A stretch of 34,913 nt of DNA from Verrucomicrobiota bacterium. Its GTDB lineage: Bacteria; Verrucomicrobiota; Lentisphaeria; UBA2565; JAYEIY01. The notes under the pieces were generated by a model. That model saw nothing but the letters and a program-made list of their open reading frames with translations, did not search any database and was not told the DNA's origin. Below are positions 4,242 through 34,913 of the stretch, in pieces (the first letter of the stretch is position 1; each line of letters opens with the position of its first letter). The position numbers and the translations under genes were made by a program. The stretch is from assembly GCA_034660375.1 (NCBI GenBank), contig JAYEIY010000132.1, positions 1-34,913 of the forward strand. Reading direction: 5' to 3'.

Positions 4242-4303
4242 AATTGTTTTAATCCTTTTTCCTCTTTTTTGTTTGTAGTTAGACCCTGTAATAGGCTCGC
4301 ATG

Positions 4304-4328
4304 AGTTCAAAATCAGAGATTTTGAACT
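4304..4328. other. Perfect intergenic inverted repeat (11-bp stem, 3-nt loop)
   Basis: AGTTCAAAATC-AGA-GATTTTGAACT between folC and the TPR-like gene. Could be a terminator, operator or REP-like element. Confidence 0.5.
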
Positions 4329-4531
4329 TTATTTAAAATGAATACGGACTCGTTAATAATAATTTTAAGTGTTATTTACTCAAAAACACAACTCAAAACA
4401 GAAACAGGCAGTCTACGAAAAGCCTTTGAATAAAGTGAAAAAAGCTTTTCGTGCAATGTCTAATTAAGTCAGTATCTTTAGGTAAAAATACATCATAGTC
4501 TATCTTTTTCAATATTTTTATTGCTTTCTTT

Positions 4532-6003: not shown

Positions 6004-6771
6004 ATGCAATTTTTAGATCGTTTAGAACAAAACTTTGGAAAATTTGCGATACAAAAGCTTCCCCTTTATCTGGCTGTTGCACAGCTTGTTTGTTTTTTTT
6101 ATGCCAGTGCTCATGGAGGTATTGCATTTCTAAACCATCTCGTTCTTAATTCTACGGCTGTTATGCAGGGTGAGATCTGGCGACTCTTTACTTTTGTTAT
6201 TATCCCACCAGGAGTCCAGAATCTTTTTGCTCTTTTTGGGATATATTTTGTTATATACTTCATGGGGTCGGCTCTTGTTGAGGAATGGGGAGACTTTAAA
6301 TTTACCTTTTTTGTTTTTTCCGGGTGGCTGATGACAGTTGTCGCATCTTTTTTCTTTCCTTATAACATATTGACAAATGTTTTTCTTGAGACATCCATTA
6401 TACTTGCTTTTGCATACCTCCTCCCCAATTTTGAATTTTATCTCTTTTTTGTACTCCCCATAAAAATAAAGTATTTGGCATATTTTATCTGGGCAGGGCT
6501 TGTTATTTCTTTAGTATTTGCTCCTTGGTCGCAGCGAATTTGCCTCCTTGCATCTTTAACAAATTACTTTATCTTTTTTGGGAAAGACATTTATATGAAC
6601 ATGAAAGCGGGAAAAAGAAATATGAAGCAGCAGGTAGAACAAATTAAAATATCAAAAAAAGCCTTTCACGTTTGTAATGAATGCGGTGTTACAGATAAGG
6701 ATGAACCTGGGAAAGAATTTAGAATATCATCACAGGATGGAGAAGAATACTGTCTTGAACACCTTCCATAA
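6004..6771 (+). CDS. Rhomboid-like multi-pass membrane protein with C-terminal Cys/His (Zn-binding-like) motif
   Basis: GEIWRLFTF loop motif, EWGDFKF, FFVLPIKIKYLA, about 6 TM segments, C-terminal HVCNECG...EYCLEH. Confidence 0.75.
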   Translation: MQFLDRLEQNFGKFAIQKLPLYLAVAQLVCFFYASAHGGIAFLNHLVLNSTAVMQGEIWRLFTFVIIPPGVQNLFALFGIYFVIYFMGSALVEEWGDFKFTFFVFSGWLMTVVASFFFPYNILTNVFLETSIILAFAYLLPNFEFYLFFVLPIKIKYLAYFIWAGLVISLVFAPWSQRICLLASLTNYFIFFGKDIYMNMKAGKRNMKQQVEQIKISKKAFHVCNECGVTDKDEPGKEFRISSQDGEEYCLEHLP

Positions 6772-6791
6772 ATAATTGGAGATTTTTTTTA

Positions 6792-8129
6792 ATGAGTACG
6801 AGAAGAAAACTTAGTAAAATTTTGACAATTGCGGGAAATACTTTAAGGTTAATATTTAGAGGGGGAGCAGGCATAGGAACCTTATTTATTTTGATTCTTG
6901 TAGGAATTTTTATTTTTTCGGCTGCAAAGGCAGATGAAGTCCTTATTAACGAGATCCGTCTGCGTTTTAGGTATAGTTTATATTTTTCGACAACAATTCT
7001 GAGTATGGCAACTCTATGGTTTTCCTGTGTAACTGTTAGGAAAGATATTGATGGAAAACAGATGCACGCCCTTGTTTCTTTCCCTATTTCCAGAGTGCAG
7101 ATTTGGATTGGCAAATGGCTTGGAATTTTTACATTTGCGTCCATTGCTTTGTTCTGTTGTATCCTTACATCAGGTCTTTGTGCATTAGTTTTTACAATGA
7201 ATTGGGAAAATAAGACTGAAATAACTGAAATGTTAAAAAGTATTAATCCAGTTTACTCTATTTGTCAGCCGGAAGGAAGATCTGTTGAAATAAAAGTAGA
7301 TATAGCCTATTCTAAATTAAAGGCAACAGGAAAACTTCCCCCAAATGAAACAGAAACACAAATAAGAAAAAATCTTTTTCTTAAATTTAGAAGAGAAGAA
7401 CAATTGTTGCCAGCAGGAACAGGGCGAACATGGGAATTTAATCTTAAAAAAAGACCACAAGGGAAATCCATTTCTTTTAGATATAAGTTCTACACACAAA
7501 GACGTAAAAAACTTGCTGGAAAATGGATTGTAGAAACACCAGGAAAAATTGAGAGATATGAAGTAAAATTTAACAAATATCCCTATAGAATACATACCGC
7601 AGAGATTCCCGTCTCCATGATTCCTAAAAATAATTTCACCGTATCCTTTATCCCGATAACCAAAAAAGATATCATTTTCCCCGGAGAAGAGGGGCTTCGC
7701 GTATACTACAAGACCGGCACTATCTTGGGCAATGCAACTATGATGTTCTTTTTGTTTTTACTACACCTCGGGACTGTTGTAGCTCTCGGGCTTACATTTG
7801 GAACCGTATTTACATTTTCTGTAGCAACTTTTGTTTCGCTGATTTTTTATTTCTTGGGAATGGGTAGCTCTTTCTTTGAAAATATTGCCAATAATACCAT
7901 GAACTCAGAAGAAGGAACCCTCCATTTTTTTTCAAATTTATTTTTATGCATAGGTGTTTGGCTTACAAAAGGTATCAGTCCTTCACCAGTAATTGGTCCA
8001 TTTTCCGAAAATCTTTCTGTAAGCGCAGGCTTGCAATCCTGGTTGCCAGAACTTATCCTATATTTTTTAGTCGTAGCAATAATCGGAATGATTTTTTTGT
8101 CTAGAAAGGAACTTGACAGATTGCATTAA
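6792..8129 (+). CDS. ABC-2-type transporter permease-like membrane protein
   Basis: KDIDGKQMHALVSFPISRVQIWIGKWLG permease signature, 3 N-terminal TMs, large soluble loop, 3 C-terminal TMs ending SRKEL. Confidence 0.75.
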   Translation: MSTRRKLSKILTIAGNTLRLIFRGGAGIGTLFILILVGIFIFSAAKADEVLINEIRLRFRYSLYFSTTILSMATLWFSCVTVRKDIDGKQMHALVSFPISRVQIWIGKWLGIFTFASIALFCCILTSGLCALVFTMNWENKTEITEMLKSINPVYSICQPEGRSVEIKVDIAYSKLKATGKLPPNETETQIRKNLFLKFRREEQLLPAGTGRTWEFNLKKRPQGKSISFRYKFYTQRRKKLAGKWIVETPGKIERYEVKFNKYPYRIHTAEIPVSMIPKNNFTVSFIPITKKDIIFPGEEGLRVYYKTGTILGNATMMFFLFLLHLGTVVALGLTFGTVFTFSVATFVSLIFYFLGMGSSFFENIANNTMNSEEGTLHFFSNLFLCIGVWLTKGISPSPVIGPFSENLSVSAGLQSWLPELILYFLVVAIIGMIFLSRKELDRLH

Positions 8130-31233: not shown

Positions 31234-31827
31234 ATGAATGATTCTCAATTCAATCCTCAATTATATCGTAAATATAACGAAAATGAATTTCAGAAAGTGA
31301 CATTTATCTGTGATGAGTTTCCGACCGTTTTCGGAGAGATTCTTGTTGCAAAATTCGCAGATGGCGGAACTGTTAAAATCGGGAAAAATGTAACGATAAA
31401 TTCTGCTTTCTGGGCTAATCCGGTCGGCGGAACCCAGACCTGTTTTCTAATCAAAGGCGAGGATGCCCTGATCAATATCGGCAACAATGTGGGAATGTCC
31501 AATGTGCTTCTTGCCGCACGCGTGAGCATAAAAATTCATGACAATGTAAATTTGGGCGGTGGCGTTAAAATATTCGATACAGATTTTCACTCTGTTGATC
31601 TTCAGGAAAGGCTTGATGATGTTAATATCCCGAAAAAAGCAGTCGTAATTGAAGAGGGATGTTTTCTCGGTGCTGACGTAATCATCCTAAAAGGCGTAAC
31701 CATTGGCAAGGAATCGGTTGTCGGTGCAGGTTCGGTTGTCGCAAAAAGCATTCCACCAGGCGAAATATGGGGCGGAAATCCGGCAAAGTTCATCAAAAAA
31801 CTAACCAATAAGGAAAAAGTACAATGA
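31234..31827 (+). CDS. Hexapeptide-repeat (left-handed beta helix) O-acyltransferase
   Basis: IGKNVTIN, IGNNVGMS, IFDTDFH, IILKGVTIGKESVVGAGSVV, WGGNPAKFIK. SD AAGGA. Confidence 0.92.
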   Translation: MNDSQFNPQLYRKYNENEFQKVTFICDEFPTVFGEILVAKFADGGTVKIGKNVTINSAFWANPVGGTQTCFLIKGEDALINIGNNVGMSNVLLAARVSIKIHDNVNLGGGVKIFDTDFHSVDLQERLDDVNIPKKAVVIEEGCFLGADVIILKGVTIGKESVVGAGSVVAKSIPPGEIWGGNPAKFIKKLTNKEKVQ

Positions 31828-33077
31828 AATATGAAGAATTAAGATATGGAATGTTCATACATTATGGGCTGTTCAGTATGCTTGGACGTGGCGAATGGGT
31901 AATGAATAGAGAAGAAATCCCCGTGGAAGAATATGCGAAATTAGCAGATAAATTTGATCCGTCTAAGTTTGATGCAGATGCAATATGTGATTTTGCCGTT
32001 AATAATGGTATGAAATACATAGTTTTTACTACAATGCATCATGAAGGTTTCAGACTTTATGATACATATTTGAGTGACTATAATTCTGTTAAAAGTTGTG
32101 GTAGAGATTTGACTCAGGAAATTGTTGATGCCGCAAAACAAAGAGGATTGAAAATTGCTTTGTATCACAGTTTAAATAATTGGTATGATCAACCAGATGC
32201 TGTTGATGCGCTTGAAGATGAAGAAAAATATCAAATTTTCATTAAAAATACTTTTGCAAGGATAAAAGAATTAGTAACAAAATATAATCCTATAGACGTT
32301 CTCTGGTATGATGGTTGGTGGCCTTTTAATGCAGAACAATGGCAGGCGGAAAAAATGAATGCTATGGTTAGAGAAATTCAACCGCATATATTATTTAACG
32401 GACGTAATGGTCTAGATGGTGATTTTGGAACTCCAGAAGGTCATGTATCCGCTCCAAACCCATGGCGGCCATGGGAAGCATGTATTACCTTGAATAATAA
32501 CTGGGGATATCATCGTGGAGACCATAACTGGAAAAATCAGGAAGAACTAATTGATATGCTTGCAAAAGTTGCACAGGGCAACGGAAACCTGCTCCTTAAT
32601 ATTGGACCTAAGGGAGATGGTTCAATTCCTGAAGAATCTGTGACAATAGTTGAAGAAGTAGGTCGTTGGATTAAGAAAAACTCTGAAGCACTTTACAATA
32701 CTGAAATTTTTGATTTTGATTTGCAAGAACGTGGAAATCACAGGGGAGACTGGAGTAATATAGGATCTTTTACTGCAAAAGGGAATAATCTGTACTTCTG
32801 GATTAAGCACTGGGTAGGACAAACATTAACTATAGGAGGTCTGGAATCAAAAGTGAAGAAAGTCTTCTTTTTAGATGGTGGAGAAGAACTTAAATTTCAG
32901 CAAAAAGAAACAAAACTAGTGATTCTTGGTTTGCCGGAAAACCCTCCAGACTCTCTTTGTACGGTATTAAAAATAGAATGCGAGACTCCTCCAGAAATAT
33001 ATCTTTCTGGAGGTATGCGTACTCCCCAAGTAGAACATCCACATTACGATCCATGTCCATCGGATATTCAATTATGA
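31824..33077 (+). CDS. Alpha-L-fucosidase-like glycoside hydrolase, family GH29 (no signal peptide)
   Basis: YGMFIHYG, TTMHHEGF, nucleophile motif LWYDG, TPE, WEAC, WGY, GNLLLNIGP. ATGA overlap with the upstream gene. Confidence 0.93.
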   Translation: MKYEELRYGMFIHYGLFSMLGRGEWVMNREEIPVEEYAKLADKFDPSKFDADAICDFAVNNGMKYIVFTTMHHEGFRLYDTYLSDYNSVKSCGRDLTQEIVDAAKQRGLKIALYHSLNNWYDQPDAVDALEDEEKYQIFIKNTFARIKELVTKYNPIDVLWYDGWWPFNAEQWQAEKMNAMVREIQPHILFNGRNGLDGDFGTPEGHVSAPNPWRPWEACITLNNNWGYHRGDHNWKNQEELIDMLAKVAQGNGNLLLNIGPKGDGSIPEESVTIVEEVGRWIKKNSEALYNTEIFDFDLQERGNHRGDWSNIGSFTAKGNNLYFWIKHWVGQTLTIGGLESKVKKVFFLDGGEELKFQQKETKLVILGLPENPPDSLCTVLKIECETPPEIYLSGGMRTPQVEHPHYDPCPSDIQL

Positions 33078-33103
33078 AAACAAAAATAAAATAAGGTTAA
33101 GGG

Positions 33104-33540
33104 GCATTAATGGCTTTTGTTGGTAATGCGTTTACTATTGATGGTGATAATTATACCATTAAAATAAGCGTGCTACTGCAAATGCTATGTGTGAAAAATC
33201 CTCGCTGTTATTGAACAAGAATATTATTTGGTCATCATTCACGGAAATGGATCACAGTAGGAAATCTTATGCTGTAGCGTGATTTAACCAATAAAAAAGT
33301 TCCTCCAATGCCTCTTGATCTACTTGTTCCACAGACTGAGGGGGGATTAGGATATATCCTACAATATTAATTATTAAATCATTTTCGCCTATATAAAACT
33401 GGTAAATATGTTGTAATAATGACAACACAAGTAAGAATTGATGAAAATGATATAGCATTCAAAAATACTACAAAATCTCTAGACCCTTTTTACTTGAAAG
33501 AAGAATCAAAAGAACTGGATGGAAGGACTATAGATGGAAT
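33104..33540 (+). pseudogene. arcC: Carbamate kinase pseudogene (N-terminal half, multiple frameshifts/stops)
   Basis: Motifs in the expected order across frames: ALMAFVGNAF (ALGGNA-like), LVIIHGNGSQ/VGNLML, VPPMPLDLLV, TEGGLGYILQ, VVIMTTQVRIDENDIAFKNTTKSLDPFY (TQVxVDxxDPAFxNPTKPIGPFY-like). Confidence 0.85.
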
Positions 33541-33808
33541 TTTTTAAAAGTGGATTAAGCTTTCTAAACATGAGAAAAAACTGTAGAACAGGTTGTTGAT
33601 GCAATTTTATTGAAACAATAATTAATTATAATTAGTTATCTCCAATCCAAAAGCGAGATAGAGTCGCACTTAGAAAGATTCGTTGCACTCATCAAAAAAC
33701 TAGCTAAAGAAAAGAAAGAATATCTCTAGCAGTTCTACAAATACCTCAACTTTTCTTTCCAATAGAATGATTTCTTTTTCTAAAAGAAAGGATCTAACTC
33801 CATACTCA

Positions 33809-34673
33809 CACTCTTCACATTACACGCACGGCAACACGCATTTTGGTAGTACGTCATCTCCGAGGACGTGTACAGCTTTTGTTTTCGCTTTCGGAGATAG
33901 CGAAGTACTTTTGGAAACGTTACGAATCACGCGGAGCGGGTAAGCTTGGATTTTCTGGAAAAGATTGTTTTTCCAGAGTGCTTGGCTACCGCGGAGCGAT
34001 AATTCCGAAGCGAGCTTGCGAGCGAGGTTAGAAAACTCGTTTTCCCTTTCTGCGAATGCAGAAATATGGATAATTTTTCTATTTTCTCGGATTTCGGTTG
34101 TTTGAAATTTGAGAGAATGGGGAAAGTATCCCACTTTTCACATTACACGCACGGCAACACGCATTTTAGTAGTACGTCATCTCCGAGGACGTGTACAGCT
34201 TTTGTTTTCGCTCTCGGAGATAGGGAAGTACTTTGGGAAATGTTACGAATCACGCGGAGCGGGTAAGCTCGGATTTTCGGGAAAAGATTGTTTTTCCAGA
34301 GTGCTTGGCTACCGCGGAGCGATAATTCCGAAGCGAGCTTGCGAGCGAGGTTAGAAAACTCGTTCTTCCTTTCTGCGAATGCAGAAATATGGATAATTTT
34401 TCTATTTTCTCGGATTTCGGTTGTTTGAAATTTGAGAGAATGGGGAAAGTATCCCACTCTTCACATCACACGCACGGCAACACGCATTTTAGTAGTACGT
34501 CATCTCCGAGGACGTGTACAGCTTTTGTTTTCGCTCTCGGAGATAGCGAAGTACTTTGGGAAACGTTTTGGATCACACGGAGTGGGAGAGCTCGGATTTT
34601 CGGGAAAAGATTGTTTTTCAGGAAACTTGGCTACCGCGGCAGCGATATTCCCGGAGCGAGGAACGAGCGGAGG
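33809..34673. repeat. Tandem array of a 323-bp structured non-coding unit (2 full copies plus about 0.7 diverged copy)
   Basis: Units start at 33809, 34132 and 34455 (CACTYTTCACATYACACGCACGGCAACACGC). Copies 1 and 2 differ at about 10 positions with no indels. Copy 3 diverges increasingly and ends near 34673. Confidence 0.97.
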
Positions 34674-34684
34674 GCTTGCACTTT

Positions 34685-34721
34685 CAATTCCCCAATTCTG
34701 CAATTTCCCAATTCCACAATT
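34685..34721 (+). repeat. Octamer microsatellite (CAATTCNN-like) x4.6
   Basis: CAATTCCC CAATTCTG CAATTTCC CAATTCCA CAATT. Confidence 0.8.
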
Positions 34722-34859
34722 AAAAATCCTAACTCATTTATTTATCCCAAATTCTTACTTAAAAATCAGAGTTTATTGTATCGTACTTGTTCAAAGTAGG
34801 TTATTATTCAAGTAAAACTAAAGCTAATTAGTCGACAAAAATAGGATTTTTGTCAGATT

Positions 34860-34913
34860 ATGAAGAAGAAAAAACACCTGAAGTATGAAGAAAAGAGTTT
34901 GTTGTTAAAGCAT
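34860..34913 (+). CDS. Possible start of a CDS running off the window end
   Basis: ATG then 17 open codons (MKKKKHLKYEEKSLLLKH). Too short to identify. Confidence 0.2.
   Translation, partial: MKKKKHLKYEEKSLLLKH

Follow-up and report, generated by a model that had tools for sequence, protein, structure and literature searches.

BOX elements of Streptococcus pneumoniae are non-coding, strongly folding repeats organized as boxA-boxB(n)-boxC, in which the inner unit is about 45 bp long. To our knowledge, no dedicated transposase has been shown for BOX elements, and we know of no link between them and the ends of Y1 transposases. In Enterobacteria and Pseudomonas, the REP/BIME repeats with their RAYT partners are portrayed, in the available portions of PMC3333891, PMC8266576 and PMC3116915, as extragenic, hairpin-forming and multi-copy sequences, clustered into mosaics with other motifs; the REPs themselves are 20-40 nt and mostly form inverted pairs. 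The consensus of the inverted repeats found around TIRYT genes, which define TIRtrons, is given as GGGGWSAS in the accessible text of PMC3733652 and PMC6006769 (subclass 2.1). Larger assemblies are also known: the NIMEs of Neisseria are large mosaic intergenic regions interleaving REP-type and other repeats, as far as the accessible text of PMC3733652 goes, and a Porphyromonas gingivalis MITE with an internal minisatellite is dispersed and non-autonomous, with terminal inverted repeats and a tandem array of short units in variable copy number (PMC4596501, in part). The sequences described below are new with respect to every collection searched; the kind of repeat DNA that they represent is already known.

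The 323-bp array and its mosaic family

The window, i.e., the whole stretch of 34,913 nucleotides that was analysed, is one entire contig (C132) of the 346-contig MAG of a Verrucomicrobiota bacterium (GCA_034660375.1, 89% complete). It ends at 34913, about 250 bases past the array, and the copy number is the one read from this fragmented assembly: Tandem Repeats Finder detects a period of 323 with 2.6 copies, 94% matches and 0% indels (score 1513) at 33809-34660, which bears out the tandem array of 323-bp units announced in a preliminary description of this DNA. The copies lie head-to-tail. In blastn alignments with copy 1, copy 2 shows 96.9% identity over 323 bases, with 10 differences, the number estimated earlier, and copy 3 shows 89.4% over 207 bases. 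The units were said to be richer in GC than their flanks and not to be a CRISPR, and both statements hold: GC is 0.44-0.50 within the array vs 0.29-0.31 in both flanks, the units abut without spacers and the CRISPR-DR match in Rfam scores 19 bits for a threshold of 48. The parts of the array and its immediate surroundings are the following:

33710-33795, + strand: leader module A, about 72-86 bp, with seven copies on 5 contigs (two in C97, one each in C132, C157 and C256, two in C336)
33809-34131, + strand: unit 1, composed of U1, U2, a T-like linker and U3 (Tandem Repeats Finder, blastn and folding)
33846-33873, + strand: U1 block of highest conservation, a GTAG with a local hairpin after it, resembling a REP in form and also contributing the 5′ arm to the long U1 hairpin (33845-33909)
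33930-33993, + strand: U2 hairpin, lying between direct repeats CGCGGAGCG and seen missing at other loci
34015-34131, + strand: U3, with two hairpins, one small (34047-34064) and one long and G-U-rich (34068-34131), found solely inside tandem arrays
34132-34454, + strand: unit 2 (blastn against unit 1), forming with unit 1 the closest pair among all copies
34455-34680, + strand: unit 3, of terminal type, composed of U1, U2 and the terminal module T (34635-34680)
34685-34721, + strand: CAATTCNN microsatellite, often found after T (Tandem Repeats Finder period 8, 4.6 copies)
34726-34786, + strand: tail module (end of E and D2), interrupted after GTATCGTAC; C122, C256 and C305 match it at 95% identity over 61 bases
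34788-34913, + strand: start of a separate multi-copy element, a probable insertion sequence, with an ORF from 34860 (read depth and starts of run contigs)

Units 1 and 2 are mutual closest relatives among all copies of the genome (96.1% in the all-copy comparison), while unit 3 is nearest to terminal units located elsewhere (92.1% with C28 and 91.1% with C336) and not to units 1 and 2. On these sequence relationships, the array is best described as a local tandem duplication within a single mosaic element, of which it repeats the inner part. The tandem order would instead be an assembly artefact if dispersed copies had been wrongly chained, and both the fragmentation into 346 contigs and the stop of the window so close to the array could be taken in that sense. 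Four public DNA runs (X1-X4, from one study and labelled brine) also split the array region into short contigs, with breaks all through it; in X3 and X4, stretches of this region that lack contig cover carry no meaning. However, units 1 and 2 join in register and yet differ at 10 sites. Moreover, the U3-to-U1 junction is spanned by one run contig (record 21 of X3, with 7 letters differing) and is likewise assembled on C305 (twice) and on C336, which argues against an artefact and makes it very unlikely.

Blastn and profile searches of the MAG identified 21 copies of the unit core U1 (E <= 7e-15) on 12 contigs, and the profile search 16 copies of U2, for 24 blastn pieces of the unit overall. 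The mapping of nine reference modules defined at least 12 mosaic loci in this MAG, in which module order is fixed and co-oriented at every locus: a leader (L1 or A), U1, U2, (U3-U1-U2)n, T, a tail D1/E and D2. Module A is found in tandem in C97 and C336 and directly 5′ of U1 in C132, C256 and C157. Within U1, identity in alignment columns 25-52 is complete or at least 90% across 20 copies, for a mean column identity of 90%. U2 often but not always follows U1, and it is precisely missing between two CGCGGAGCG direct repeats in C28, C39, C157 and C179. Matches to U3 are confined to C132 (2), C305 (2) and C336 (1); the ends of U3 align with the tail module E (score 93 vs 24.8 +/- 4.3 for shuffles), partly through the shared T segment. 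U3 had also been considered as a copy of D1, a candidate that was rejected since only the shared T segment and some 20 bases are alike, and module E aligns better. The CAATTCNN motif is also found 3′ of T in C28, C157, C39 and C305. D2 lies downstream in the same orientation on 10 of the 12 U-bearing contigs, and its complete copies extend to ...CCCCGGAATT, the terminus being also given as ...GTATCGTACCCCGGAATT.

All mosaic copies are intergenic. Their orientation shows no consistent relation to neighbouring genes and follows no rule with respect to the GC skew of the flanks (negative at 10 of 16). On C176, D2 copies spaced by about 73 bp were examined as a possible CRISPR and this reading was discarded, the "spacers" being themselves repeat modules. 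Outside this genome, the unit sequence matched none of 40 relatives and gave 0 matches in two metagenome scans, one genome-collection scan, one viral contig scan and among plasmids and phages. The comparison with the genome and related MAGs by BLASTN, which the preliminary description had advised, thus reveals a dispersed family, and its proposal of a novel repeat element is upheld across all these collections.

Like BOX elements, the mosaics are made of a head, variable tandem inner units and a tail, the inner unit measuring 323 bp here vs about 45 bp. Like the NIMEs of the accessible text of PMC3733652, they are large, intergenic and composed of several repeat families, but their sequences are different and their units larger and polar. 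They also resemble the P. gingivalis MITE, as presented in the available part of PMC4596501, in being dispersed and non-autonomous with a tandem array of variable copy number, but have neither the terminal inverted repeats nor the short units of that element. An amplified MITE had been one of the first suggestions: its multi-copy amplification is retained, while its MITE nature is not, because the loci are polar mosaics that lack terminal inverted repeats as well as target duplications. At these loci, leader and tail are unrelated, no inverted D2 end is found nearby and no flank duplication is seen.

The D2 module of the window is interrupted after GTATCGTAC by the element starting at 34788. 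From this position, read depth rises to 154.9-178.9 in X1, where the unique flank has 15.9, and to 23.4-24.4 in X2, where it has 3.9, i.e., about 6-10 times the flank, and contigs begin at 34788/34789 in all four runs, with other sequence preceding it in X3 and X4. The ORF at 34860, initially envisaged as a partner protein of the array, hence belongs to a different multi-copy element and is no longer retained in that role. A sequence at C52:8-60 (minus strand), 79% like this element, may be its other end; the interior is absent from the MAG.

Several other repeats were observed in this genome, in which 9.5% of the assembled bases have a match at another place and 568 merged loci are accompanied by 4 or more further copies, a repeat content that explains its assembly into 346 pieces. 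One of them is a classical MITE, about 250 bp long, whose terminal inverted repeats are TAATTAGAC...GTCTAATTA; it has about 100-170 other matches in the assembly, and its copies include:

Window, 4291-4478: classical MITE copy
C307:3227-3476: classical MITE copy
C330:125-345: classical MITE copy
C339:17390-17620: classical MITE copy

Another repeat module, ending ...GCTCGATAACTTGGAGCTCTGG and located at 1-167 of the window, has about 77 other matches, often at contig ends, and truncated copies of it lie inside the mosaics of C39 and C97. The window also contains a tandem repeat at 557-708 (period 24/48, 6.3/3.2 copies, 85% matches). Between the alpha-L-fucosidase gene (31824-33077) and module A, about 630 bases (33078-33709) hold no ORF over 63 aa and no blast repeat match. 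The mosaic at C256:93-821 adjoins a gene with confirmed RHS repeats (108.7 bits), and ORFs flanking the mosaics on C293, C336 and C339 are RHS-like by eye, a possible association with toxin-type loci that would be a further point in common with NIMEs.

Coding potential, folding and the RNA question

The unit was first described as having no convincing ORF. Units 1 and 2 each contain a 104-aa ORF on the minus strand, for which no Pfam match and no homolog at E <= 0.01 were found, and the array of C305 has no minus-strand ORF of 80 aa or more. Hence, this ORF is not convincing, in agreement with that description. The same pair of ORFs could suggest that the unit derives from a protein-coding gene, or a fragment of one, that has decayed, but beyond their lack of a Pfam match or homolog and their loss on C305, the unit length of 323 is not divisible by 3 and the copies differ by 1- and 2-base indels, so that a coding origin is extremely improbable.

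The plus strand of copy 1 folds as RNA at -111.9 kcal/mol (z -5.61), a value equalled by 0 of 100 shuffles, and the minus strand at -88.9 kcal/mol (z -4.36). When copy 1 is folded as DNA, the values are -54.9 for the plus strand (z -5.18) and -44.5 for the minus strand (z -3.02). The plus strand is therefore the better folder under both models, consistent with the earlier proposal that it folds as RNA or ssDNA, and the four hairpins pointed out at that time are all present in its minimum-free-energy RNA fold. Such an advantage is compatible with RNA and with single-stranded DNA alike.

These folds raise the question of whether the units encode small structured RNAs of one family, whose transcription might start from L1 and end near the T/D1 junction, in which case the array would provide several copies of a regulator, sponge or antitoxin-like RNA. 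Besides the lower energy of the plus strand, its fold in copy 1 contains 21 G-U pairs vs 2 A-C single (1x1) mismatches, an excess that would also fit RNA. The long U1 hairpin (hairpin 1) is paired in 98.5% of cells over 20 copies, and the 7 pairs that change on one side all stay paired. The position 33890, singled out earlier for its change from G-U to G-C, behaves as stated: the pair is G-U in copy 1, and of the 20 copies 18 have G-C there and 1 is unpaired. By eye, L1 contains TTTAAC-17 nt-CATAAT, and a short hairpin with TTTTT behind it can be seen at the T/D1 junction.

Against RNA genes, the z-scores of the two strands (-5.61 vs -4.36) barely differ, which indicates that part of the difference in folding energy is due to composition. 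Because the unit has no match outside this genome, covariation could be compared among within-genome copies, which, at about 90% likeness, are too close to tell an RNA structure from a DNA palindrome. The covariation check called for at the outset returned 0 compensatory (two-sided) changes in hairpin 1, where the shuffle control is consequently uninformative. For the U2 hairpin (hairpin 2), pairing amounts to 88.4% of cells, a value attained by 111 of 500 shuffles and so not above them; copy 1 alone has a perfect inner stem, in which pair 32-51 is lost in 12 of 14 copies. The Rfam scan advised at the same time was equally negative: with Rfam 15, the best score in the window region is 20.7 bits for a threshold of 60, and the sole match at 8 other loci (29.9 bits vs 56.8) lies outside the repeats. 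Furthermore, the array of the window has leader A and not L1, and a simple scan of it detected 0 terminator-like sites and 5 promoter-like sites vs 4.5 expected, the level of shuffles. Finally, variable truncation and stacking, described below, are not traits of RNA genes. The public runs include no RNA run and the comparison rests on DNA sequence. Taken with these results, the structured ncRNA or antitoxin-like array of the preliminary description gains no support, and a family of RNA genes appears rather unlikely. It is worth noting that a transcribed structured RNA and the reading of the mosaics as repeat DNA are not mutually exclusive.

Y1 transposases and end-anchored stacks of truncated copies

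The MAG contains four Y1_Tnp loci (C105, C142, C208 and C233), two of which hold intact genes, encoding 249 aa (C105) and 179 aa (C233). These two proteins score respectively 76.4 and 75.3 bits (E 2e-21 and 4.5e-21) with the NCBIfam model REP_Tyr_transpos, just below its cut-off of 80, 35.8 and 38.1 bits with Pfam Y1_Tnp (cut-off 23), and 23 and 27 bits with the IS200 model. HVH/HYH and YI..N motifs were read in the Y1 ORFs. The intact gene of C233 is preceded, at 6624-7238, by about 3.5 tandem copies of a hairpin-rich unit of about 240 bp, i.e., another long structured non-coding array, here beside a RAYT-like gene. Directly upstream of the broken Y1 gene of C208 lies the reverse complement of the module ending ...GCTCGATAACTTGGAGCTCTGG. 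No TnpB was found in the genome, and the lack of a match for a Y2 (IS91-type) partner is uninformative, control genomes being equally silent.

The C105 gene is bordered by inverted copies of TATAGTATCTGACCCC, which includes GGGGTCAG. The latter fits the TIRYT consensus GGGGWSAS and occurs in 5 copies upstream of the gene, with its complement downstream. The 16-mer of C105, allowing up to 2 mismatches, has 11 matches in the genome, of which 6 are at C105 itself, 4 at D2 ends and 1 in C29, making the mosaic tail a sequence relative of a transposase-gene end. This proximity concerns the TATAG variant of D2 (4 of 32 ends), which alone comes as close as 2 mismatches in 16 to the C105 repeat, the majority variant differing more; GGGGTACG of D2 matches GGGGWSAS at 6 of 8 positions. 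Among 150 other genomes of the class, 23 encode homologs of the C105 protein, and clear flanking inverted repeats were found at 6 of the 19 homolog loci that were fetched.

The C105 gene, a RAYT-like Y1 with GGGGWSAS inverted repeats, thus agrees with the TIRtrons of PMC3733652 and PMC6006769, as do the scattering of D2-type ends as singles and groups and the GGGG-type inverted repeats carried by homologs in the class. Unlike TIRtrons, the D2 ends are one-sided, arranged in truncated stacks and fused to long non-coding modules, and such stacks are not described for TIRtrons in the accessible text of these two papers. The likeness to REP/BIME systems lies in the general traits given above for these repeats, in the presence of RAYT-type Y1 HUH transposases with related repeats on either side of their genes, and in the GTAG tag followed by a hairpin in U1 (33846-33873), which is intergenic and near-invariant in 20 copies, the total of 21 copies being modest. 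In contrast to the 20-40 nt of REPs, mostly in inverted pairs according to the available portions of the REP literature, the modules here are 60-320 bp, always direct and in fixed order, and all U and D2 copies of a contig are co-oriented, unlike the inverted doublets of REPINs and BIMEs. A RAYT gene flanked by the repeat that it accompanies is a trait of REP/REPIN-RAYT systems; in this 89%-complete MAG, the U1 GTAG hairpin flanks none of the genes at C105, C142, C208 and C233, and no Y1 gene was found flanked by an exact D2 end.

A total of 32 D2-type ends were located on 12 contigs. They share a common outer end, ...CCCCGGAATT, and vary in copy length from 12 to 214 nt, these lengths being ungapped estimates, of which three on C339 are too low owing to a 7-base deletion. 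Directly after 23 of the 32 ends (one, on C255, judged by eye) comes another module, often another piece of D2. Similarly, 9 of the 21 U1 copies begin at inner unit positions 10-38, and the five copies upstream of the C105 gene, with their constant outer end and variable inner end, form a stack of the same type. Partial stacked copies of the repeat end were also seen at 3 of the 6 homolog loci with inverted repeats (L053, L054 and L056, read by eye without a chance control). No inverted D2 partner was found near any locus, all D2 copies within a contig having the same direction. At C176:8809-9020, on the minus strand, five stacked D-type copies lie against the 57 C-terminal residues of a tyrosine recombinase, which match Phage_integrase with 75.1 bits at profile positions 115-171 of 172; the frame is closed by a stop exactly at the repeat boundary, and the recombinase gene hence appears to have been truncated by the repeats.

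One-sided truncation of this kind is equally expected from incomplete reverse transcription, and the family could spread through an RNA intermediate, with reverse transcription primed at the target site, as in retroelements. The constant outer end and varying start of the 32 D2 ends and of the 9 truncated U1 copies, stacked head-to-tail, would be accounted for in this way. However, the only RVT_1 match in the genome scores 21.6 bits, below the cut-off of 29.6; as the MAG is 89% complete, this does not prove the absence of a reverse transcriptase. In addition, no group II intron RNA was matched in the window region or at the 8 other loci, giving no sign that the family belongs to group II introns or retroelements, and similar stacks adjoin Y1 genes both here and in other genomes. 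Retrotransposition is accordingly a quite improbable route.

The alternative that links the stacks to Y1 enzymes can be put forward tentatively. The stacks at D2 ends, at the C105 gene and at homologs in three other genomes may be the footprints of one-ended cut-and-join reactions by RAYT/TIRYT-type Y1 enzymes; the genome would then record both the spread of the repeats and the building of polar mosaics, 323-bp units included, by serial end-anchored addition. In the literature searched, including the available part of PMC8266576, no report of Y1 enzymes producing truncated stacks was found, and the same part of that paper states that the mechanism by which REP-type repeats spread is unresolved.

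A single-stranded DNA reading of the mosaics

The mosaics are dispersed, fixed in order and orientation, strongly folding, devoid of coding signal and locally duplicated; the D2 end and the C105 repeat are related, and end-anchored stacks occur at both. On balance, the array is probably a local amplification within a dispersed, polar and non-coding mosaic of the REP/BIME/NIME/BOX kind, whose hairpins would most likely act in single-stranded DNA handled by HUH Y1 transposases of the RAYT/TIRYT type. In such a scheme, these transposases would cut and rejoin single strands beside tagged termini, the plus strand would be the strand-specific single-stranded DNA substrate, and unequal recombination or slippage between neighbouring units would raise the number of units. 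We infer that a Y1 enzyme moves or builds the mosaics, that the GTAG-hairpin of U1 would be its recognition site and that the folding strand would act as DNA rather than as RNA. The U modules are tied to D2 by adjacency only, on 10 of the 12 contigs.

The spurious ORFs that run through these repeats call for caution against annotating them. More generally, this bacterium of the PVC group, found in brine, carries a very heavy intergenic repeat load, amounting to 9.5% of its bases and including long, polar and tandemly amplified mosaics linked by sequence to the ends of REP-type transposases. If the stacks are indeed enzyme footprints, they would offer a testable model of how REP and TIR repeats multiply.
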